Source of the DNA: Candidatus Magasanikiibacteriota bacterium
GTDB taxonomy: Bacteria > Patescibacteriota > Patescibacteriia > Magasanikbacterales > GWA2-37-8
Assembly (NCBI GenBank): GCA_041666745.1
Contig: JBAYGI010000005.1
Span: 7,748 to 71,747 of the forward strand
Length of the DNA stretch: 64,000 nucleotides
Direction of reading: 5' to 3'
Under the pieces are notes generated by a model. That model ran no database searches. It had not been told where the DNA came from and saw only the letters and a program-made list of their open reading frames with translations. This document shows, piece by piece, positions 7,010 through 61,483 of this stretch. Within the stretch, counting starts at the first letter, position 1; each line of letters starts with the position of its first letter. The translations under genes were made by a program, and so were the position numbers.

Positions 7010-7082
7010 ATGGGCCGGTAGCTCAGCTGGTAGAGCAGATCCCTTTTAAGGATAAGGTCCCGGGTTCGAGCCCCGGCCGGCC
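7010..7082 (+). tRNA. tRNA-Lys (anticodon UUU)
   Basis: GGGCCGGTAGCTCAGCTGGTAGAGCAGATCCCTTTTAAGGATAAGGTCCCGGGTTCGAGCCCCGGCCGGCCCA. Anticodon loop CTTTTAA. No encoded CCA. Confidence 0.8.
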
Positions 7083-7130
7083 CACTAGAAAAAATACTCC
7101 AACTTGTTGGGGTATTTTTGTATATAATTA

Positions 7131-7263
7131 CGGCCGGGGCTCGAACAAAGGGGTGGTGGGGAAAGTATTTCCCCACATTGCTGAGGAAGGCTTGTGGAAA
7201 CCCGAAGGTTTCCGCAGGAGGATCCGCCGACAGGCGGAGACGACGTTCGCGCCCCGGCCGGCC
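7131..7263. other. structured GC-rich element bounded by an inverted copy and a direct copy of the tRNA-Lys 3' end
   Basis: 7131-7146 (CGGCCGGGGCTCGAAC) is the reverse complement of the tRNA T-arm/acceptor 3' half. 7246-7263 (GCGCCCCGGCCGGCCCAC) directly repeats tRNA 7066-7083. The interior carries GC hairpins (GTGGGGAAAGTATTTCCCCAC, GGAAACCCGAAGGTTTCC, CCGCCGACAGGCGG) in an AT-rich genome. Confidence 0.35.
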
Positions 7264-7316
7264 CACAAAGCAAAAACCCTCCGATTTGATTCGAAGGGTT
7301 TTTCTTTTTTATCTCT

Positions 7317-11920: not shown

Positions 11921-14866
11921 TTAAATACTTTGAAGTTCGATTAATAATTTTTCCATCTGTTGTTTGTCCGGATTTTTTTCAGCTGAAACCAACGCTAATT
12001 CTTGACCGATTTGTTTTCTTCTTTTTTTTGACCATTCATCTTTTATTTGCACTATCAATTCGGCCAACTCATCTTTAATCGAATCTTCTTCAATATTTTC
12101 CACCTGAATTTGGGCGATCATTTTTAAATTCTCAAAATCATCTTTGGATTCTGATTCATCAAAAAAACTTCGCCAAACTTCAACAGTATTGGCTTGGTTA
12201 GTATTATAATGTTTTTTTATGATTTCGTAAAGGTGTCCATAAAAACTCCCCTGCCAGCAACCGTCTTTTAAACCTGACCACAAAGAATTGATATATTGCG
12301 GAGAAAAAATCAAAATCATCAAAAATCTTTTTAACAACATGTCCAATCTATCCAAATCCGCCGCGCTTTTACTGTTTTCTTTATCTTTATTCTCTAGATT
12401 ATTTTTTTTGTTTTTGTCAAAACGTTTTATGTCATCTCTCAACACCGACGTGTCCGTACCCAATCTTCCCGCCAACTCTTTTAACCAGTAGTCTCTTTCG
12501 ACTGCAAACGGGATTAAATTGATAATCGGCAAAAGTTCATTGGCAATTTTTTGCTTGGCTTTTGGTTCAGAAGTATTTTTATTTAAAAAAGCCATTTCGA
12601 AAAACCAATGTAATACATCATCGGAATTTTTTACCGCCAAAAACCATACCTCCGGATTTTGTTTCAAACATTCATCGGCATCTTTTCCTTTTCCTTCCGG
12701 AATACGAATCGCTTTCACATTCAATCCCTCACCTAGAGCGATATCTATTCCGCGCTTCGCCGCTGCCACTCCGGCCGAATCACCGTCAAACGCCATGGCG
12801 ATATTGTTGGAATAGCGTTTGAGTAATTTTATTTGTTCTAGAGATAGAGCCGTACCGGAAGATGCCACCACATTTTTCATCCCCGCCTGATGACAAGCGA
12901 TCACATCCATTTGCCCCTCTACTAATACAACCAGATCCTGTGCTTTTATTTCAGTTTTGGCTTTGTCCAAACCATAGATCACTCGCGACTTGTCATAAAC
13001 CAAAGTTTGCGGTGTGTTTACATATTTTCCGCCACTATTTTCGGTCTCTACCAAAACTCGTCCGGTAAAACCAACTACATTTCCATGCACATCCCAAATC
13101 GGAAACATTATTCGTCCGCGGAAACGATCGTAAAATCCTTGTCCGGCGCGCGCCACATCTTTTTTTATTACCAAACCGGCCGCCACCAAATCATCGACTC
13201 CGATTCCTTTTTTTAAAAAATATTTTGTTAATAAATCCCACTGATCCGGGATAAAACCAATTTGCCATTTTTCGATTGTTTCTTTTTTCAAACCACGTTT
13301 TTCCAAATATTCACGCGCACCTTTGGCACCTTCCATCTCAGTCAAAATATGATGAAAAAAATAAGCCGCCTTTTGGTTGATTTCCAAAATGCGATTTTTT
13401 TGACTTTTATCTATTTCACTTCGATAGTTATCTATTTTTACCCCGGCGCGATCAGCCAATAATTTCAAAGTTTCAGGAAAATCCAGCCCCTCCATCTCTT
13501 GTACAAAAGAAAAAATATCTCCACCTTTTCCGCAATTACTAACTGCAAAATTCTCGGTCAAATACGAATGATCTTGTGATACGGTCAGATTAAAAACTGG
13601 CCCTTCAAAACTAGAACTTGTAATTTTTTTAATCGGATAGATAACAAACTTAGTCTCGCCATCCACCAGCCAATCCGTATATTTCGCTTGGACATCCTCG
13701 TACCACATTACATGGTATGACTTTTTATGATGGACTCCACGCTTATCCGTTTTTTCTTGATGTTGAAAAATACTAGGGATAATATTCAATCTCAACAATA
13801 TTTCCTTTAGTTGAAAAACTAAACTGTGTGATATCGTACTAACACTCCTATAATCAGGTCTTGATTTTTTACCACCTTTACTATTATGTCCGTCCCCTCG
13901 AAATATAGCTTCCAACAATATCCTTTGTTTACTAAAAGGCAGATACTCCCAACCATAAGGGATATGTTTATTGGCCGCGCCTTTGCCACATAAATTTTCA
14001 AAAATATTTGCTAAATTTGAATTACAACATGTTATTTCCAATCCAGTTTTTTTACCAGAACGTTTATGAATTGAAGCATTAATATTAAAAATGTTTTTAC
14101 ATAATTCAACAATATCCTGTGCGAATACCGGTTCATGACTGCCAACACTAAATCTTATATATCCACGATGATTACTACCTTCGGCTATCCAATAACCCAC
14201 TAATTTCAAAAAATCTTCGTTAATTTTTATATATTTAGGTAGCGCAAAAATCTTTTTGCCGACATTTTTTTTACCACGATTAAGATAATCAAAAAGTTTA
14301 ATTCTATTAATTTTAATTACTTTATCAACGACAGGATACAATAAATAATCATTCAATTTTAATTCGCCAGCGGAAATTTCTTCTATTTTATAACCTCTAA
14401 AAAATTTATGCGGGCAATTTTGTTTGCATTGTTTTTGGCACAATCTAGTCGCTCTTGATTTCTGTATACAATTCTTAGTTCTAACACAAAACACTTTGTG
14501 ATCATTTGTAATTTTTACTGGCATGTTTGATTTACGAATATATATTTGTCTTAACCCTCCCGAATAATTTCTAATCAGAGCACGAACAACATTGCATAAC
14601 TGTCCTTTGTGAGTATAAACAGAATCACCCACTTTAATATCCTCTATTTTGGTATGTCCACATTTAGTACGAATGAATGTTCCTGCCGGAAAACAACCAA
14701 AACATTTCCAAATTTGCTTTTCGGAATTGACCATGAAAGACGGCGTTTTTTCCTTGTGAAAAGGACACGGCGCTTTCCAATAAATGCCAGCTTTTTTGAG
14801 TGGCACATATTCTTGGATGGTCTGCACAATGTCAAGTTTTTCTTTGATGAGTTGAGTATCAGCCAT
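11921..14866 (-). CDS. dnaG: DNA primase DnaG with an in-frame intein
   Basis: Zn-ribbon CPFHKEKTPSF…KCFG, then the intein, then CGKGGDIFSFV. Primase/TOPRIM motifs follow (…VLVEGQMDVIA…AFDGDSAG…). 981 aa against about 590 aa for an intein-free DnaG. Confidence 0.85.
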   Translation of the reverse strand: MADTQLIKEKLDIVQTIQEYVPLKKAGIYWKAPCPFHKEKTPSFMVNSEKQIWKCFGCFPAGTFIRTKCGHTKIEDIKVGDSVYTHKGQLCNVVRALIRNYSGGLRQIYIRKSNMPVKITNDHKVFCVRTKNCIQKSRATRLCQKQCKQNCPHKFFRGYKIEEISAGELKLNDYLLYPVVDKVIKINRIKLFDYLNRGKKNVGKKIFALPKYIKINEDFLKLVGYWIAEGSNHRGYIRFSVGSHEPVFAQDIVELCKNIFNINASIHKRSGKKTGLEITCCNSNLANIFENLCGKGAANKHIPYGWEYLPFSKQRILLEAIFRGDGHNSKGGKKSRPDYRSVSTISHSLVFQLKEILLRLNIIPSIFQHQEKTDKRGVHHKKSYHVMWYEDVQAKYTDWLVDGETKFVIYPIKKITSSSFEGPVFNLTVSQDHSYLTENFAVSNCGKGGDIFSFVQEMEGLDFPETLKLLADRAGVKIDNYRSEIDKSQKNRILEINQKAAYFFHHILTEMEGAKGAREYLEKRGLKKETIEKWQIGFIPDQWDLLTKYFLKKGIGVDDLVAAGLVIKKDVARAGQGFYDRFRGRIMFPIWDVHGNVVGFTGRVLVETENSGGKYVNTPQTLVYDKSRVIYGLDKAKTEIKAQDLVVLVEGQMDVIACHQAGMKNVVASSGTALSLEQIKLLKRYSNNIAMAFDGDSAGVAAAKRGIDIALGEGLNVKAIRIPEGKGKDADECLKQNPEVWFLAVKNSDDVLHWFFEMAFLNKNTSEPKAKQKIANELLPIINLIPFAVERDYWLKELAGRLGTDTSVLRDDIKRFDKNKKNNLENKDKENSKSAADLDRLDMLLKRFLMILIFSPQYINSLWSGLKDGCWQGSFYGHLYEIIKKHYNTNQANTVEVWRSFFDESESKDDFENLKMIAQIQVENIEEDSIKDELAELIVQIKDEWSKKRRKQIGQELALVSAEKNPDKQQMEKLLIELQSI
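13535..14695 (-). mobile_element. intein (387 aa) with LAGLIDADG homing endonuclease, inserted in the DnaG zinc-finger CFG|CG site
   Basis: The intein begins CFPAGTFIRT… (Cys1) and ends …NFAVSN, followed by a +1 Cys. Two LAGLIDADG-like motifs are present (LVGYWIAEGSNHRGYI and LLEAIFRGDGH). The exteins rejoin as …WKCFGCGKGGD…, the canonical DnaG sequence. Confidence 0.7.
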
Positions 14867-15056
14867 ATACCATTAATTTAACACTGTTTACTATAAAAAA
14901 CAAGAGCAGGTCCAAACCAAAAACGAACGCTTAAATACTTGACAAAAGTGAGAAAAAATGATAGGTTTGGCCCATCCTCAGACGAGTGTTTGGAGGAAGT
15001 TCTGCATACCAACGCAGAATCTAGTTCCCTGACAATTCACAAGGCAGGAAAAATAC

Positions 15057-15554
15057 ATGCTTCCCAGTTTTCACTTGACCGACCTGTTCTTTTGGGTCGG
15101 ATTTCTTTTCCTTTTGCTCTTCGCGGGATACCATCTCATCATCTCCTGGCTTCGACGAGTGGATTCTTTCTCGAAGATCCAGGGAGACGTGAGTGTTGAA
15201 CGGACAATCCGTCACTTCCTGCGACCGGCCATCCTGACACTCCTAGCTATCACTGCGCTCATTTGCGTCACCATCGGCCAGGGCTCGCAGGCGAGCACGC
15301 AGAACGCCTCGCTCAATCCCGAGATGAAGGTCCGCGACGACTTCGTCAAGGCACAACAGGAGGAAGCCAAGACGGTGACCCCCAAGACTGTGCCAGCGAT
15401 GGAAGCCGAACGGAAACAGGTGGAGGAGACAAAGCGCAAACAGGCGGAGGAAGATGCGCGACGTCGCCAGGAACAGTCCGGCGAGGCGCTCAAGAACTTC
15501 CGCCAGCGAGTCATGGAGCGTGGCATCAATCCAACGGACATCACCACACCGTAG
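15057..15554 (+). CDS. membrane protein (two TM helices plus charged C-terminal tail) in GC-rich island
   Basis: 165 aa with GC3-rich codon usage (island about 60% GC against about 35% in the flanks). Two hydrophobic helices and a Glu/Lys/Arg/Gln-rich tail. Confidence 0.55.
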   Translation: MLPSFHLTDLFFWVGFLFLLLFAGYHLIISWLRRVDSFSKIQGDVSVERTIRHFLRPAILTLLAITALICVTIGQGSQASTQNASLNPEMKVRDDFVKAQQEEAKTVTPKTVPAMEAERKQVEETKRKQAEEDARRRQEQSGEALKNFRQRVMERGINPTDITTP

Positions 15555-15605
15555 CACAGAGCTTCGGTTCGGGTTTCCGTTTTTCAAGACAAGAGGAGAA
15601 TTCAG

Positions 15606-16655
15606 ATGAAGAGCTTTTCGATTCGCGCCGCAATCGCACTGATGGCGGCAATCACTCTCTCCACCCTCGCCGGCTGTGAGGGCTGTACCGGACGGGTTCC
15701 GGGCGGCTACGTCGGCATGGTCATGACCCCGAGCGGGTTTAACGGGGACATCCTTGCTCCCGGCAATCACTCCTGCTACGGCAAAGACAGGATGTACCTG
15801 CTCGAAGTGAGCGACACCCAGAAGGCCGTCGAGATCAACCAGTTGACCACCGACAAGATCAACTTCAAGGCGTCCATCGGAGTGCTTTTCTCGGTGGATC
15901 GTGGCAACAAGCAGGCGATCAAAGACGCGTTCGACAACCTCACGGCGGTGCAAACGGCCGACGCGAAGGTGTTCGTAATCTCCGCCGAGTATCTTTTCAA
16001 GACCTACGTCATGGCGATTGCGGACGAGCAGGGAAGAAAAGTATATTCAAGATACGAATCTTCAGAGGTGGTGTCCAACCGCTCGAAGATTGTCGAGGAG
16101 GTCCGAACCGGAGTCGTGACGGCCTTCCAGAACGGCCTAGTCAAGATCAAGCAGGTCACGGTCAACAACGATGACTTTCCGCACGACGTGAATATGTCTT
16201 GGGAGGCGCGTGCCAGGAAGATCATCGACACCGAGACCGAAAAGGCCGAGCAAACCCGACAACTGATCATCAAGAACAATGAGTTGGCGCTGGAGACACT
16301 CAATTACCAGATCGACTTGGTCAAGGCGGCGAACGTCGCCGACTCGAACAAGATCATCGGCTCGTCCATCACGCCCGAGTATCTGGCATACCAACAGATC
16401 AAGGTCATGGGCGACGCGGCCAAGGGTCCGAACAACTGGGGATTCATCCCCTTCACGGACTATGCCAACGGCAAGGTCAACGGTGGCCCGGCCGACCGCC
16501 TGACAAGCAAAGGTCTGGTCGACGCCGAGCTGATCAAGAGGATTCAGGATGCGCGCCAGAAAGGCGCCGACGCCAAAGCCCAACAGGACAAGGCCAAGGC
16601 ACCCACGGCACCGCCTCCCGCCGATCCTCCGGCGGCCGCTCCTGCCACTCCGTAG
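15606..16655 (+). CDS. SPFH/band-7 domain lipoprotein with Pro/Ala-rich C-terminal tail, in GC-rich island
   Basis: Strong SD AGGAGA. Signal peptide with lipobox LAGC. SPFH-like core. C-terminal …APTAPPPADPPAAAPATP. High GC3. Confidence 0.6.
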   Translation: MKSFSIRAAIALMAAITLSTLAGCEGCTGRVPGGYVGMVMTPSGFNGDILAPGNHSCYGKDRMYLLEVSDTQKAVEINQLTTDKINFKASIGVLFSVDRGNKQAIKDAFDNLTAVQTADAKVFVISAEYLFKTYVMAIADEQGRKVYSRYESSEVVSNRSKIVEEVRTGVVTAFQNGLVKIKQVTVNNDDFPHDVNMSWEARARKIIDTETEKAEQTRQLIIKNNELALETLNYQIDLVKAANVADSNKIIGSSITPEYLAYQQIKVMGDAAKGPNNWGFIPFTDYANGKVNGGPADRLTSKGLVDAELIKRIQDARQKGADAKAQQDKAKAPTAPPPADPPAAAPATP

Positions 16656-16782
16656 ATACTACACTCACCCTCGCCAGCTATCAGGCGTAAGATAGCCGAC
16701 GAAGCTCTTTCCCACCAATACGCCCGGTGACGCGTAAGCGTTCCGGTTCATCCGCCCTGTGCATTTTGTTGGCACGGGGCAA

Positions 16783-16825
16783 TCACAAAAGACACCATTT
16801 CAAATGATGTCTTTTGTTTTTATTT
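16783..16825 (+). terminator. rho-independent terminator closing the GC-rich island
   Basis: AAAAGACACCATTTCAAATGATGTCTTTTGTTTTTATTT. Confidence 0.45.
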
Positions 16826-17082
16826 ATAATTTTATTTTTTTCTGTTTATAACCCTCTAAAATTTTCTGAATTTGTTTTTTGAATTCAGGTAAATCGCTTT
16901 TTACGGTTTTCCAAACTACGAGATCATCTATTTGAAAATATTCATGTATCATTTTATCTCTCATAGTCTTGTGTCTTGCCGGATAATAAAAACTTTTCTT
17001 TGTTTAAATCGGCCACATAACTTTCCACCGCCTCAATGCTTTCAAAAATGTGTTCTAAATAAATTACAGGGTCTTTGCGCAT
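16824..17082 (-). pseudogene. HEPN/DUF86 (HepT-like) toxin gene remnant, internally deleted and frameshifted
   Basis: The N-terminal fragment MRKDPVIYLEHIFESIEAVESYV… ends in a stop after 42 codons. In the +1 frame …TMRDKMIHEYFQIDDLVVWKTVKSDLPEFKKQI… carries the conserved R-x4-HxY and C-terminal DUF86 signature. Its start codon lies 1 nt after the MNT stop. Confidence 0.5.
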
Positions 17083-51218: not shown

Positions 51219-52313
51219 TCAAATTTCACTCTTTAAATCTTCCAATTTTTTACGAGCTTCGCGTGAAACTTTTTTTGGCACACGAATTTTTATTTTTACA
51301 AAATGATCGGCGCGAGTTGTTCTGCCCAAATGAGAAATTCCGTGTCCTTTCATTTTTATCAGCTGACCGGATTCTATTCCTTCGGGAATTGTCAAAGTAA
51401 CCGGACCGTCGATTGTTTCCACTTCTATTTTGTCACCAAGCACCGCTTGAGTAAAATTGATTTCGTTTTCAGTATATACATCAAAACCTTCACGATGAAA
51501 ATATTTGTTTGGTTTGATATGCGCGCGCACATAAAGATCACCACTTTGACCACCGTGCGGAGCGGCCTCACCATACCCCGACAACCGCAAAGATTCGCCG
51601 GTATTTATCCCAGCCGGAATTTTTACTTTGAGATCACTGGATTTGGCTACGATGCCATCACCACCACAATGTTTGCATTTTTTGCTTGGCCGTTCTCCCC
51701 TGCCCTGACAGGTCGGACAGGTCACGATAGCTTGCATCGTCCCCAAAAAAGTTCTTTGATTTTGCGCGACTTGTCCTTGTCCGCCACAGGTGTTGCATTT
51801 TTCCATTTTACTTCCCGGTTCACCACCGTTTCCACCACAAACATCACAAGCACTTTGTTTGCGCAAATGAATTTCTTTTTCAATACCAAAAGCCGCTTCT
51901 TTAAAATCTAATTCGACATCGACCTGGATATCACTGCCACGCTCTTGTCTGGAACTACGAGATCGTCCTCCTCCGAAAATATTTCCAAAGATATCACCGA
52001 GATCTTCACCACCAAAATCAAACTGAAAACCGCCACCTTGACCACCACGAGCCTGGCGCATAAAATCTTCCCAACTGGCACCACCACCAAAACCGCCTTG
52101 TTGTTCGAAATCCGAACCAAACTGATCGTATTTAGTACGTTTGTCAGTATCGTTAAGCACCTGATAAGCCTCATTCACCTCCTTGAATTTCTTTTCGTCA
52201 CCACCCGGACGATCCGGATGGTATTGCATGGCGGCTTTTTTGAAAGCTTTTTTGATCTCATCGGTGGTGGCATTTTTTTCTATGCCTAATATTTTGTAAT
52301 AATCTTTGGACAT
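51219..52313 (-). CDS. dnaJ: chaperone DnaJ
   Basis: J-domain with HPD, a G/F region, and four CxxCxGxG zinc-finger repeats. Confidence 0.9.
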   Translation of the reverse strand: MSKDYYKILGIEKNATTDEIKKAFKKAAMQYHPDRPGGDEKKFKEVNEAYQVLNDTDKRTKYDQFGSDFEQQGGFGGGASWEDFMRQARGGQGGGFQFDFGGEDLGDIFGNIFGGGRSRSSRQERGSDIQVDVELDFKEAAFGIEKEIHLRKQSACDVCGGNGGEPGSKMEKCNTCGGQGQVAQNQRTFLGTMQAIVTCPTCQGRGERPSKKCKHCGGDGIVAKSSDLKVKIPAGINTGESLRLSGYGEAAPHGGQSGDLYVRAHIKPNKYFHREGFDVYTENEINFTQAVLGDKIEVETIDGPVTLTIPEGIESGQLIKMKGHGISHLGRTTRADHFVKIKIRVPKKVSREARKKLEDLKSEI

Positions 52314-56707: not shown

Positions 56708-56998
56708 TTAAAATGGTTTTAACGTTGGATAAAGATCGTTCCACTCTGGATTATCTTTTTCTATCAATTCTGTTTTCCATTTTCTATTCCACTTTTTAAT
56801 TTGTTTTTCTCTGGTTATGGCATTTCTTACATCGTCATATTGTTCGTAATAAACTAAATTGTGAATGTGATATTTTTGGGTGAAACCTTCTATTGTCTCT
56901 TGTTTGTGTTCGTGGATTCTTCTTAATAGATTATTTGTCACACCTACATACAATACGCCATTTTTCTGGTTGGATAATATGTAGATGTAATAAGTCAT
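56708..56998 (-). CDS. standalone GIY-YIG nuclease family protein
   Basis: MTYYIYILSNQKNGVLYVGVTNNLLRRIHEHKQ carries the GIY…YVG and R/E/N motif arrangement. 96 aa. Confidence 0.75.
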   Translation of the reverse strand: MTYYIYILSNQKNGVLYVGVTNNLLRRIHEHKQETIEGFTQKYHIHNLVYYEQYDDVRNAITREKQIKKWNRKWKTELIEKDNPEWNDLYPTLKPF

Positions 56999-57010
56999 AG
57001 CCCCCTCTTA

Positions 57011-57125
57011 GATCCCCGTTTTCACGGGGATGACAATTGATTAGATTCCCATTTACATGGGAATGACAATGTTTATTAGATTCCCGCTTTCGCGGGAATG
57101 ACACAATTTTATTTATTAGAATGAC
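57011..57125. repeat. tandem cluster of three and a half palindromic repeat copies (reverse orientation) upstream of the GIY-YIG gene
   Basis: GATCCCCGTTTTCACGGGGATGAC (57011-57034), GATTCCCATTTACATGGGAATGAC (57044-57067), GATTCCCGCTTTCGCGGGAATGAC (57079-57102), and partial GAATGAC (57119-57125). Stem positions covary. Confidence 0.7.
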
Positions 57126-57574: not shown

Positions 57575-57607
57575 ATATATTTTTTATTAATTGATTTAAT
57601 TTAAATG

Positions 57608-57631
57608 GATTCCCGCTTTCGCGGGAATGAC
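57608..57631. repeat. palindromic repeat element copy in the hsp20 5' region
   Basis: GATTCCCGCTTTCGCGGGAATGAC. Confidence 0.7.
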
Positions 57632-57633
57632 AA

Positions 57634-58204: not shown

Positions 58205-58885
58205 TTATTTTGTTAAAATAGTTTTTACCATTTCTAAAAGTGTATAATTGCGTTTGTAGTTGGTGCGTAATGGAGATAATAAAGTAACCAGACTGTTGCC
58301 AAATTTAAACGACGTGGCAGACAGCATACTTCCAAACGGATGTTCGTCACCAATAAAAATTTTTATTTCTTCAGATACTAAATTATAAAATTCCGGAATA
58401 CAATCTTCACATCGATCAAACACCTGTGAAATATCCCCTACCACACCAAGCTCTACAAATTCCGGCTTGGAAAATAAATTGGATAATCCGGTGTAATAAA
58501 TAGAATTTGGTGAAAAAGCAAAAATCACTGTTTCTTGAGTAATCACCGCCAACGATTTTGATAAATTTTTCTGAGCCTGAATTTTGTCTTCCAGAGCAAA
58601 AAAACTTTCCAAAGCATCTGCTTCTTTTTTGTTAATTTTTAATTTATCCCATTCTATTTTTTCCAAATAATATTTATAACCCTTTTCGGTAGGAATACGA
58701 CCGGCACTGGTATGAGGATGAGTAAGATAACCCACTTCCTCAAGCTCGCGAAGTTCATTGCGTACAGTAGCTTCACTCAAATCCAGCTCGGCATCCGATA
58801 CCAAAAACTTAGACCCGATTGGTTGGGCGGTATCAATGTATTTTTCAATAACCAAGGTGAGTAGTTGTTCTTGACGAGGGTTCAT
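58205..58885 (-). CDS. hrcA: heat-inducible transcription repressor HrcA (start revised to ATG 58885; the track ORF extends to a TTG at 58927 that lies inside the promoter spacer)
   Basis: MNPRQEQLLTLVIEKYIDTAQPIGSKFL…, the HrcA N-terminal wHTH. The CIRCE operator sits immediately upstream. Confidence 0.8.
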   Translation of the reverse strand: MNPRQEQLLTLVIEKYIDTAQPIGSKFLVSDAELDLSEATVRNELRELEEVGYLTHPHTSAGRIPTEKGYKYYLEKIEWDKLKINKKEADALESFFALEDKIQAQKNLSKSLAVITQETVIFAFSPNSIYYTGLSNLFSKPEFVELGVVGDISQVFDRCEDCIPEFYNLVSEEIKIFIGDEHPFGSMLSATSFKFGNSLVTLLSPLRTNYKRNYTLLEMVKTILTK

Positions 58886-58886
58886 A

Positions 58887-58940
58887 TTAGCACTCAAACT
58901 ATACGAGTGATAATATACCACCCCCAAAATTAGCTGTCAA
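58887..58940 (-). promoter_or_regulatory. sigma-70-type promoter (TTGACA-17-TATATT) overlapped by a CIRCE inverted repeat
   Basis: On the minus strand: TTGACAgctaattttgggggtggTATATTATCACTCgtatagtttGAGTGCTAA. The CIRCE consensus TTAGCACTC-N9-GAGTGCTAA is matched with one mismatch. Confidence 0.6.
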
Positions 58941-58949
58941 GGGTAAAAA

Positions 58950-59278
58950 CTTATCCACACGCGTTCGGGCTGGACTATTGCTAAAAATCCCAAACCATGC
59001 TTTAATATGGCCTATCTGCGACTGGAATGAATGGAGGCTCACAAGTGTCCAACCTAGACGCTTTTGCGCTTATGGAGCGGTACCACTTTGTCCGGCGGCA
59101 CCATGACAGAACGCGCAAGACTCTAGGTTATACTGGAGTACAACGATTCTTACCCAGTAGACAGATCCTGGACGGTTCCATGTTACTTCACGCGTCTGTC
59201 AGGCGCGAAAAAGTACGGGGACCGTCCAGGCCCCCATACTAAAATCAAAATACCAACTAAATTAGTTGGTATTTTTTT
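58950..59278 (+). ncRNA. candidate structured RNA or foreign fragment: about 300-nt block of about 52% GC ending in a hairpin terminator
   Basis: GC content is well above the flanks. Multiple GC helices (e.g. GGACGGTTCC…GGGGACCGTCC). Terminator ACCAACTAAATTAGTTGGTATTTTTTT at 59248-59278. The only ORF (59027..59242) looks spurious. Confidence 0.3.
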
Positions 59279-59280
59279 TA

Positions 59281-59304
59281 GATCCCCGTTTTCACGGGGA
59301 TGAC
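59281..59304. repeat. palindromic repeat element copy plus two 3' partial copies (59318-59326, 59340-59348)
   Basis: GATCCCCGTTTTCACGGGGATGAC, then GGGAATGAC and GGGGATGAC fragments. Confidence 0.65.
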
Positions 59305-59353
59305 AATTCTTTATGTTGGGAATGACATTTCTTTATTTTGGGGATGACATTTG

Positions 59354-59923
59354 TTATTTTATCGTCTGAACTTCATGTAAAAGTACATTTTCTACATATA
59401 TACCACGGGCATAAAAGATCCGTTCTAATTCGTTTTTTAGCTCCATTTCTACCGCATCACGTTTGGTGCTAGTGATTTCCTGTAAAGCAAATTTGCTAAA
59501 TACCATACGCACCCGACTACGAATGGTTGGACGGATAATCTTGGCTACAAAATCTTCGCCAATCTGTTGCCAAATCGAAGGAATCTGGTGAACATCCAAA
59601 CGCAACAATATTGTCCCCTCTACTGCCACACGTAGACCATCTTGAGTCAAGGCGGCAATTGGAATATCCCCCAAAGCCTTTTCATTTTCAACACCAAACT
59701 GGCGACTGATAGTATATTCCAAAGTTTGAACATTAAACAACTTGGCCTTTTGCCAAAACGGAATTTTGAGATGTAGTCCAGGGGTCAGTACTTTTTTCAA
59801 TACTCCCCGTCCCAGATCATAAACACAGGCCACATAACCGGGTGGAACCGAAATAAAAAACCCCTTCAAAACATCATCCATTACAAATGAATACATCAAT
59901 TTGTCCAAAGAATCTCCAGCCAT
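59354..59923 (-). CDS. SPFH/band-7 domain protein
   Basis: 189 aa. …PGYVACVYDLGRGVLKKVLTPGLHLKIPFWQKAKLFNVQTLEY…, an SPFH core without an obvious TM. Confidence 0.55.
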   Translation of the reverse strand: MAGDSLDKLMYSFVMDDVLKGFFISVPPGYVACVYDLGRGVLKKVLTPGLHLKIPFWQKAKLFNVQTLEYTISRQFGVENEKALGDIPIAALTQDGLRVAVEGTILLRLDVHQIPSIWQQIGEDFVAKIIRPTIRSRVRMVFSKFALQEITSTKRDAVEMELKNELERIFYARGIYVENVLLHEVQTIK

Positions 59924-59933
59924 ATATAAATAA

Positions 59934-60632
59934 TTAGTTTTTACTTTTTCTAAACGGTAAAGTTAATAGATGAATTATATCGGAAAATAGCATAGAAGTC
60001 AAAATAAACAACGACTTCACCATCGGCAATACCCACAAGATACCAAAAGTAAACAAGGGGAAAACAAACAAAAATACCACCTGACTGGATTGCCATTTTT
60101 TCTGACCACGATTTTCCAAAATAATAGAAAAAAATAAATAAATCGCTGTTATACCGGACCAAACCCAATCGTGTAATTTACCAATTTCAAAACCATAAAA
60201 AAGTGTATTTACTTTCCCAGGAAAATCTATCCATGAATACAATATCTTGGCCATTTTTTCACCGGTGATACCACGCACAAATACCTGATAAAGCAAAACC
60301 AACACCAACAACTGAATAAGCAGGGTGAGGGTTTTTGCCCAAGGAGAAATACGATTCTTTTTCATTATTTTGCGAATTTCTTCTTGTTGAGCGACATGAT
60401 CATGGCGAAAAGCTTTGGCGGCCAGCGTAGCTTCGGCTTCGGCTTTTTCTTGTTTGCTACTATTGCTTTCAGAAATAATGGTGAGAGGTAACAAAACAAT
60501 ACGCAAAAAAACAGTCAGCCAAACTACCGCCCAACCCAAATTGTGGTCAGTGAGATTGCTATAAATCCAAATCAAAGCGTTAAACAACGGTATCAGCAGA
60601 TATTGGTTCCAAATTAGTGAGAGTATTGCCAT
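59934..60632 (-). CDS. YidC/Oxa1-family membrane insertase (short form)
   Basis: …GWAVVWLTVFLRIVLLPLTI…, the conserved YidC TM2 LLPLT motif, followed by a charged loop and further TM helices. 232 aa. Confidence 0.5.
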   Translation of the reverse strand: MAILSLIWNQYLLIPLFNALIWIYSNLTDHNLGWAVVWLTVFLRIVLLPLTIISESNSSKQEKAEAEATLAAKAFRHDHVAQQEEIRKIMKKNRISPWAKTLTLLIQLLVLVLLYQVFVRGITGEKMAKILYSWIDFPGKVNTLFYGFEIGKLHDWVWSGITAIYLFFSIILENRGQKKWQSSQVVFLFVFPLFTFGILWVLPMVKSLFILTSMLFSDIIHLLTLPFRKSKN

Positions 60633-60724
60633 AGTTATTAAATATATAATAGCACAAATTCAGTTTATAGGCAACAAAAAAACCGCCCTCCACTAGGGAA
60701 AGACGGTTTTAAAAATTTTGGGCT

Positions 60725-61483
60725 TTAAACTACTCTCGGCTGTTCGCTCTGCACAAACTTCTTGATATCTGAAATAGTGCTCATCATTTGAGCTGGAAAT
60801 ATAATAGTGGAATTTTTCTCAACACTAATCTCTGCCATTGTTTGTAAGTTTCTTAGCTGTAAAGCTATTGGGTGAGCCGCTATAATATCCGCGGCATCAG
60901 CCAATTTTTGAGCAGATAAAAATTCACCTTCGGCGGCGATAATTTTGGCGCGCTTTTCTCGTTCCGCTTCGGCCTGTTTGGCCATTGCTCTTTGCATACT
61001 CTCTGGCAGTTCGATATCTTTTATCTCTACTACTGATACCAAAACTCCCCAAGCTTCAGTATGAGCATCCAACACAGCTGCAATTTCTTTGTTGATAGCT
61101 TCACGTTCACTCAAAATTTCATCCAATTGAAAACGTCCGACAATATTTCGCACTGATGTTTGCGCGATTTGGTTGATTGCTGACATCACATTTTCAATAG
61201 CCACAATACTTTTCACTCCATCGACTACTTTGTAATAGGCTACCGCGGATACATCTACTGACACATTATCCTTGGTAATAATTTTTTGTGGTGAAATTGG
61301 CAAAGTTATAACTCGAAAATCCACTTTGCGAACTTGGTCAATAAATGGAATAACCCAATTTAGACCCGGCTCTTTGGTGGTGATGATCTTTCCCAAACGA
61401 AATACTACTCCTTTTTCGTATTGTTGAATAATACGCAATCCGGCCAAGATTATGGCCACTACTACGGCTATTGCTTGATACAT
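60725..61483 (-). CDS. stomatin-like SPFH/band-7 membrane protein
   Basis: N-terminal TM plus the SPFH domain (…[12 protein letters not shown]…[33 protein letters not shown]…). Confidence 0.75.

Follow-up and report, generated by a model that had tools for sequence, protein, structure and literature searches.

A probable structured non-coding RNA gene beside hrcA in Candidatus Magasanikbacteria

The described RNAs that most resemble the one considered here are the protein-sequestering rods, among them 6S RNA (RF00013), the RsaE/RoxS-type C-rich sRNAs of low-GC bacteria, and the Leu operon leader (RF00512). 6S RNA is near-universal and forms a single rod whose large central bubble imitates an open promoter and is bound by the RNA polymerase holoenzyme; such RNAs are notoriously difficult to detect from sequence. 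The RsaE/RoxS-type sRNAs are intergenic units that combine an unpaired C-rich stretch with an intrinsic terminator and lie divergent from a regulator, and small RNA genes divergent from a regulator gene are further familiar from oxyS/oxyR, gcvB/gcvA and sgrS/sgrR. The leader of the Leu operon presents a long hairpin, a short spacer and a terminator. The reduced genomes of the CPR have scant space for non-functional DNA, and to our knowledge almost nothing is known of CPR non-coding RNAs except rRNA, tRNA and introns.

Within the 64,000-nt stretch of DNA analysed here (the window), the interval ~59014-59279 on the + strand is probably a stand-alone gene for a highly structured non-coding RNA of ~265 nt, divergent from hrcA and convergent with a Band_7 gene. 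The RNA matches no described family and very probably represents a new structured small RNA of some Magasanikbacteria. It is accessory and not housekeeping, because it is absent at the same locus in close relatives. The initial annotation of the window had offered two identities for this block, a candidate stable RNA or a foreign fragment. The former is borne out by compensatory pair changes at the same locus in two other lineages, by a promoter-like block and a terminator, and by the lack of coding; the latter fares poorly, as set out below.

Relation to described RNA families

How does the RNA compare with its nearest counterparts? Like 6S RNA and other protein-sequestering rods, it has a rod, here of ~155 nt, with paired ends and with asymmetric loops conserved between sequence-variable helices. 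However, its loops are small, 7 by 9 nt, whereas 6S RNA has the large central bubble; the rod is followed by a 64-nt hairpin, a tail and a terminator that are no part of it; Rfam gives the RNA no score; and its occurrence is patchy, not near-universal. With the RsaE/RoxS-type sRNAs it shares the intergenic position, the unpaired C-rich stretch, the intrinsic terminator and the orientation relative to a regulator gene. Unlike them, it is far more structured and two to three times longer, its invariant sequence lies chiefly in internal loops and a bulged hairpin, it has no sequence or covariance-model similarity to them, and no candidate target was found among 61 start regions. The Leu operon leader is the sole Rfam model that recurs in all three homologs of the RNA, at 24.5-28.5 bits against a gathering score of 50. 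Its match covers the 3′ hairpin and the terminator and is one of generic shape only, since the locus has neither a leader peptide nor a same-strand downstream gene, the next genes being convergent. A riboswitch or attenuator leader was likewise rejected because the genes 3′ of the terminator (59354-61483) are all on the opposite strand.

An Rfam scan at gathering thresholds, which the initial annotation had recommended, returned no family in the window or in five related loci, and permissive scans of the three homologs gave only terminator-driven or generic-shape hits. The same annotation had failed to recognize RNase P, tmRNA or SRP RNA by eye, and no such model comes near threshold in the three homologs. 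For RNase P RNA, none of them gives a hit at E≤10, and a GGAAAG-type CR-I is lacking; when the P4 helix between CR-I (GAGGAAAGUCC) and CR-IV/V (ACAGAA..GGCUUA) was sought, GACAGAAC was present, but its partner lies ~45 nt off in a nested hairpin. ARAGORN found no tmRNA in the window and Rfam gave no tmRNA hit; SRP RNA gave no Rfam hit, and each of the three homologs has a different apical loop on its rod; the 6S covariance model gave no hit at E≤10. A highly divergent housekeeping RNA of one of these four kinds, missed by Rfam in Patescibacteria, would have the fitting size, the rod-like 5′ domain with conserved loops and the high GC content observed here. We nevertheless regard such an identity as extremely improbable, considering not only these negative searches but also the nested topology, which lacks a P4-type long-range pseudoknot, a tRNA-like end and a GNRA-capped domain IV, the variable apical loop, the absence of the RNA from the same locus in close relatives, and the lack of a true copy in 185,579 species genomes searched with a 19-nt motif from the variable domain.

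Several further candidates were rejected. For a guide or scaffold RNA (ωRNA, tracrRNA, bridge RNA or TIGR array), no effector gene (TnpB, IscB, Cas, IS110 recombinase or Tas) adjoins the block, the RNA is not repeated within the window, and Rfam yields neither HEARO nor any other family. For a group I intron in a tRNA, an idea taken from PMC13011429, neither tRNA halves nor an Rfam hit to an intron were found. Sequence inspection dismissed a TIGR array or box C/D-like element; a K-turn at the base of P5 is precluded by extra unpaired nucleotides on both strands; and a CsrA sponge is disfavoured as the GGA motifs are not kept in the homolog at locus L032.

Composition, anatomy and folding of the locus

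The GC-rich block is real. Its GC content is 47.7% across 58950-59278, 50.8% at 58950-59246, which omits the AT-rich terminator, and 53.6% in the structured core (59014-59233), against 36-38% in the flanks and 38.4% in the entire window; the excess of 13-17 points over background compares with the ~17 first claimed. In the GC profile of the window, 297-nt segments as GC-rich as the block amount to 2.7% and are confined to four places. The five tRNAs of the window have 49-64% GC, a range that includes the block; such a composition is what a folded RNA would be expected to show in a genome rich in AT. The fourth place at this GC level, 51520-51847, lies inside a 364-aa ORF (51219-52313, - strand) and is probably merely a GC-rich coding stretch.

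The genes around the block encode an ABC transporter, Band_7, YidC, Band_7, HrcA, GrpE and Hsp20, and Pfam confirms both immediate neighbours, hrcA and the SPFH (Band_7) gene, between which the block had been placed (Table 1). The hrcA promoter is near consensus, with -35 TTGACA at 58940-58935 and -10 TATATT at 58917-58912 in the promoter scan, and a CIRCE operator, TTAGCACTC-N9-GAGTGATAA, can be read from the sequence below it at 58887-58913. The position of this control region puts the block upstream of the hrcA transcription unit and divergent from it. No second CIRCE was seen within the putative promoter of the RNA on inspection.

Intergenic gaps of this heat-shock cluster contain a family of REP-like palindromic repeats (TTAGATYCCCGYTTTCRCGGGRATGACA). 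The palindromic-repeat copy that had been noticed right after the block belongs to it; this copy, 3′ of the RNA terminator, is also found in L032 and is absent from the homologous locus L007. A small stand-alone protein of 96 aa with a GIY-YIG / T5orf172 nuclease domain is encoded downstream of hsp20 (56708-56998, - strand), adjoining the triple repeat, and its gene is missing from the L007 and L002 arrangements.

Table 1. Coordinates of the RNA gene, its parts and its neighbours in the window, with nucleotide identities to the homologous loci L032 and L007
Feature	Position	Strand	Description and basis	Identity to L032	Identity to L007
HrcA gene	58205-58885	-	Pfam HrcA and winged-helix domain	91% (third codon positions 80%)	82.7% (third codon positions 64%)
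hrcA control region, outside the RNA	58887-58940	-	Promoter scan; invariant in relatives		
Promoter-like block	58978-59008	+	TTGCTA 58978-58983, 17-nt spacer, TGcTTTAAT / TAATAT 58998-59008		
5′ domain	59014-59166	+	Irregular rod closed by the 5′ end of the transcript; MFE folds of three homologs		
P1	59014-59018 / 59162-59166	+			
P1b	59021-59025 / 59154-59158	+			
Conserved internal loop	between P1b and P2		GGAAUG opposite CU(U)ACCC		
P2	59029-59032 / 59146-59149	+	Variable stretch between P2 and P3		
Central part of 5′ domain	59035-59150	+	Fast-diverging (mosaic); identity comparisons	39%	58%
P3	59051-59058 / 59122-59129	+			
P4	59062-59069 / 59113-59120	+			
Second conserved loop	between P4 and P5		YUAUGKA opposite RUGACAGA(A)C		
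P5	59077-59084 / 59097-59104	+	Apical hairpin		
3′ hairpin	59167-59230	+	64 nt, bulged A and U, apical pentaloop; UUCCAUGUUACU ... AAAGUACGGG	96%	75%
C-rich tail	59231-59246	+	CCCCCAUACUAAAAUC; single-stranded, unpaired in every MFE and consensus fold	100%	90%
Intrinsic terminator	59247-59279	+	13-bp stem (59247-59275), 3-nt loop, U8; terminator scan	96%	60%
REP-like copies	57004-57103 (three in tandem), 57601-57632, 59274-59305; half-copies 59318-59355				
Band_7/SPFH gene	59354-59923	-	Pfam		

At the 5′ border, CATGCTTTAAT in the promoter-like block is identical in all three homologs, each of which has a TTG 17 nt upstream, and the spacer around the block is only 40-65% identical. From this conservation we infer a putative independent promoter with a start at ~59010-59016. 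The consensus promoter scan did not call the block, its -10 element being imperfect: TTTAAT lacks the A at position 2. The extent first proposed for the feature, 58950-59278, needs trimming: its first 50-60 nt (58950-59012) are poorly conserved spacer and candidate promoter and lie outside the RNA. At the opposite end, the strong intrinsic terminator that had been pointed out was recovered by the terminator scan, stem and T-run alike. It is bidirectional, serving the convergent Band_7 gene as well, and its stem covaries in L007 (ACCAAC/GUUGGU to CCCGGC/GUCGGG).

Between these signals lie the 5′ rod, the 3′ hairpin and the C-rich tail. The first bases of the transcript, AUCUG, pair with CAGAU immediately 5′ of the 3′ hairpin and so close the rod, whose P5 apical loop varies in sequence and length among all three homologs. 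The 3′ hairpin is the module with the highest sequence conservation: of its 27 consensus pairs, 19 are invariant and two are changed on both sides, 96% of the cells are paired, and three G·U pairs are conserved. The conserved 3′ module follows the pattern TTCCATGTTACT-N(20-30)-AAAGTACGGG...CCCATACTAAAA, and CCCAUACUAAAA in the C-rich tail is invariant. Part of the tail, CCCCAUACU, is able to pair with AGUACGGGG in the 3′ strand of the hairpin (59213-59241, + strand), displacing the 5′ strand of the hairpin; the same pairing is possible in L007, where A-U replaces G-C at one position. The pairing may reflect an alternative conformation or be coincidental; the long hairpin is far more stable. 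An H-type pseudoknot in which the tail would engage the hairpin's 3′ strand was rejected as sterically implausible.

The many short GC helices that had been remarked upon in the block exceed chance. For 59012-59282 on the + strand the MFE z-score is -9.2, and none of 200 shuffles is as stable; the homologs in L032 and L007 score -6.9 and -6.3, again with no shuffle as stable. RNAalifold on the three homologs gives 75 pairs, 14 of them changed on both sides, and standard pairs fill 90.2% of the pair cells, against 30-45% when partners are slid by 1-3 columns. The 14 double-sided changes compare with 5.9±1.8 in shuffles (0 of 500 reach 14) and 0-5 in the slid controls, statistics that are weak inasmuch as they come from three distinct sequences of one narrow clade, which also supplied the consensus structure. 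Because MAFFT misregisters P2 and P5 in the row of the window, the tool counts understate these two helices. Direct reading of the sequences shows compensation in each of several helices: P1b changes from CUGG/CCAG to CCGG/CCGG (U-A to C-G); P2 from GAAU/AUUC to GAGC/GCUC (A-U to G-C and U-A to C-G); P3 from AACCUAGA/UCUAGGUU to AGCCUAGG/CCUUGGGCU (two A-U to G-C); and a single position of P5 is U-A, G-C and C-G across the three lineages. P3 and P4 are imperfect in L007, where they contain mismatches.

Considering that the terminator works both ways, that the - strand also folds stably (z = -5.6), and that a different structured element of relatives in the same gap seems to lie on that strand, the block could instead be a cis element of the - strand, either a 3′ UTR or terminator region of Band_7 or a leader or insulator of the hrcA operon, with no independent RNA. 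We judge this highly improbable. On the - strand the block would lie downstream of the Band_7 terminator and upstream of the hrcA promoter, and the relatives whose gap is 66 bp do without such an element. Read on the - strand, the 22 G·U cells of the + strand would turn into A·C mismatches, against 7 A·C cells conversely, which favours the + strand. The - strand fold is poorly defined, with a centroid of -75 against an MFE of -126 kcal/mol, and it is on the + strand that the terminator stands directly 3′ of the conserved tail.

The block had been described as having no credible ORF, and the comparison agrees. The longest ORF (59027-59242, 71 aa) has no relative in a protein search; the homologs differ by indels of 1, 3 and 4 nt, which break every reading frame; and the ORFs that start at the conserved AUG have 71, 26 and 24 codons in the three homologs, in different frames.

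Homologs, distribution and the mosaic central domain

Comparison with relatives, also among the checks suggested at the outset, covered eleven HrcA relatives of 75-93% identity, with the neighbourhoods of their hrcA genes; the closest named relatives are Magasanikbacteria MAGs, and the HrcA protein of the window is itself found on ENA contig ERZ27249449:k141_294892. Homologous blocks occupy the same Band_7|hrcA gap in two further lineages, represented by L032 (HrcA 93% identical) and by L007, L008, L009 and L029 (HrcA 85%), the last four being mutually identical over 1,700 nt. The promoter-like block, the 5′ rod, the near-invariant 3′ hairpin, the C-rich tail and the terminator are common to all three homologs. 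The carriers so far are three groundwater Candidatus Magasanikbacteria lineages, the window included, a lower bound and not a distribution. The majority of close relatives do not carry the RNA here; among the neighbourhoods compared, it is absent from the Band_7|hrcA gap of L002/L003, L013 and L023. The gap of L023 measures 66 bp, as does that of one further contig, too short for the RNA, and the remaining relatives have another upstream gene and gaps of ~80-140 bp. Carriers and non-carriers are interleaved in the HrcA tree.

Another structured element, of ~100 nt, occupies this Band_7|hrcA gap at L013:2795-2905 and L002:1985-2100 (also in L003). Its long outer stem is entirely different between the two lineages yet still paired; its core, on the hrcA/Band_7 strand, has the conserved hairpins CGCCC-GCGA-GGGCG and GAGC-UUCG-GCUC; and it is flanked by A and T runs and matches no Rfam family. 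In close relatives, then, the gap holds the 265-nt RNA, the ~100-nt element, or nothing.

Searches of larger collections were made with short motifs. The 19-nt motif GCTTTTGCNCTTATGGAGCG, from the variable central domain, gave seven hits in 185,579 species genomes, all by chance; GACAGAN{0,1}CGCGCAAGACTCT recovered from metagenome contigs L029, identical to L007, and five chance hits in high-GC coding DNA. Both motifs fall in the variable central domain and are absent from L032, so that these scans say little about the true distribution of the family. Four pattern scans of viral contigs gave either no hit or, in one case, 29 chance matches within coding DNA of phages, blastn of the block against phages and plasmids gave no match, and nhmmer with a three-sequence profile against the window and all loci found no paralog and no second copy in the 64-kb window.

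The identities in Table 1 change abruptly along the gene. Between the window and L032, 40-nt segments of the central domain are 30-56% identical, with drop and recovery each completed within ~20 nt at the two ends. L007, though more distant, has exact central blocks of 11, 12 and 16 nt in common with the window, and shared blocks there reach 23 nt. Despite its divergence, the central domain of L032 retains P3, P5 and the loop motifs. By these identities, the L032 central domain is more diverged than neutral sites allow, and the simplest reading is that the middle of the gene was replaced by recombination from a more distant allele; if so, more divergent copies of the RNA exist elsewhere. Targeted hypervariation of the central domain is less likely: no second copy of it, as a DGR template repeat would provide, was found in the 64-kb window, and the flanks contain no reverse transcriptase gene. 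Divergence that is bounded and faster than neutral is unusual for a small RNA and, if upheld, would point to recombination among alleles or to diversifying selection.

It is conceivable, though very improbable, that the RNA is modular, with a constant frame (the 5′ closing stems, the two invariant loops, the 3′ hairpin and the tail) around an exchangeable central cassette that diversified faster than neutral and acts as a specificity determinant, for instance for a nucleic acid or a variable partner. Were this true, the RNA would be a new programmable or polymorphic kind in episymbiotic Patescibacteria, and the second, unrelated RNA in the same gap would make the site an intergenic “RNA cassette” locus.

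The sharp mosaic borders, the patchy presence in close relatives and the REP-like repeats that adjoin the RNA in the window and in L032 could also suggest that the block, now without function, was left behind or carried along by a mobile or foreign element, for example as the decayed guide or scaffold RNA that once served a transposon or a defence system, or as DNA from the source of the GC island at 15-16.8 kb with which the initial annotation had associated it. This is very improbable. The RNA is syntenic and vertically placed, occupying the same position with intact candidate promoter and terminator in three lineages; its helices are maintained by compensatory changes; and the 3′ module is better conserved than the third codon positions of hrcA, a sign of purifying selection. 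The ±3 kb around the RNA contain no gene for a transposase, a reverse transcriptase, Cas, TnpB or IscB; phage, plasmid and viral collections give no match; and the window holds no second copy. The GC island itself is ordinary coding DNA with a gene for an SPFH protein.

That island (14991-16868) has 51-56% GC against 38% for the genome. It contains a gene (15606-16655, + strand) for a 349-aa SPFH/Band_7-family protein whose tail is rich in Ala and Pro, and upstream of this gene a 165-aa ORF without a match in Pfam. The island may have been acquired horizontally or be an assembly chimera, and it is unrelated to the RNA.

Candidate modes of action and other features of the window

The gene has the terminator, the candidate promoter, the lack of coding and the two further homologs that generically mark a trans-encoded sRNA, and fixed loop sequences stand amid its changing helices: GGAAUG/CUUACCC, YUAUGKA/RUGACAGA(A)C and the bulged 3′ hairpin. 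The presence of invariant loops and a bulged hairpin within helices conserved for pairing only resembles what is seen in protein-binding or ribonucleoprotein RNAs. Considering this pattern, it is possible, and we suggest it with low confidence, that the RNA acts in trans as a ribonucleoprotein or a regulatory RNA. A protein partner would then bind the surface formed by the invariant loops together with the 3′ hairpin, the rod would be a spacer under structural constraint alone, and the central rod would have been exchanged by recombination between divergent alleles, implying a pool of this RNA beyond the three copies. No gene for a partner protein is evident near the RNA.

Alternatively, the same gene may encode a base-pairing sRNA in which the C-rich tail (CCCAUACUAAAA), perhaps together with the CUUACCC loop, provides mRNA seeds and the body merely stabilises the transcript. 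The tail is single-stranded, adjoins the terminator and is 90-100% conserved, and the gene is divergent from that of a transcription factor. We consider this unlikely, however, because ~200 nt of conserved architecture with invariant loops go far beyond what a seed carrier needs, and because a duplex scan of the tail and loops against the 61 start regions in the window found no target better than shuffled seeds. Nor is control by HrcA evident, since the CIRCE operator lies ~65 nt upstream of the -35 element of the RNA. The adjacent hrcA-grpE-hsp20 operon may hint at a heat-shock link.

A 265-nt RNA that preserves its fold and a handful of invariant loops beside a heat-shock regulator and is patchy among relatives is a testable candidate for lineage-specific regulation or ribonucleoprotein biology in this uncultivated group. 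If neither more homologs nor transcripts emerge, it would be a minor orphan sRNA.

Another GC-rich element of the window, 7125-7300 on the + strand, lies right behind tRNA-Lys (7012-7084). It is closed by a 15-bp stem formed from an inverted (7131-7146) and a direct (~7245-7265) copy of the tRNA-Lys 3′ end (GCCCCGGCCGGCCCA), encloses three hairpins, and is followed by a terminator of its own; its z-score is -6.9, and Rfam does not match it. The element may be the relic of an integration site or a further structured RNA that is unannotated. Elsewhere, the ORF for DnaG primase (11921-14866, - strand, 981 aa) appears, from its translation, to contain an intein-like insert running from “...KCFG/CFPAGTF...” to “...FAVSN/CGKGGD”.
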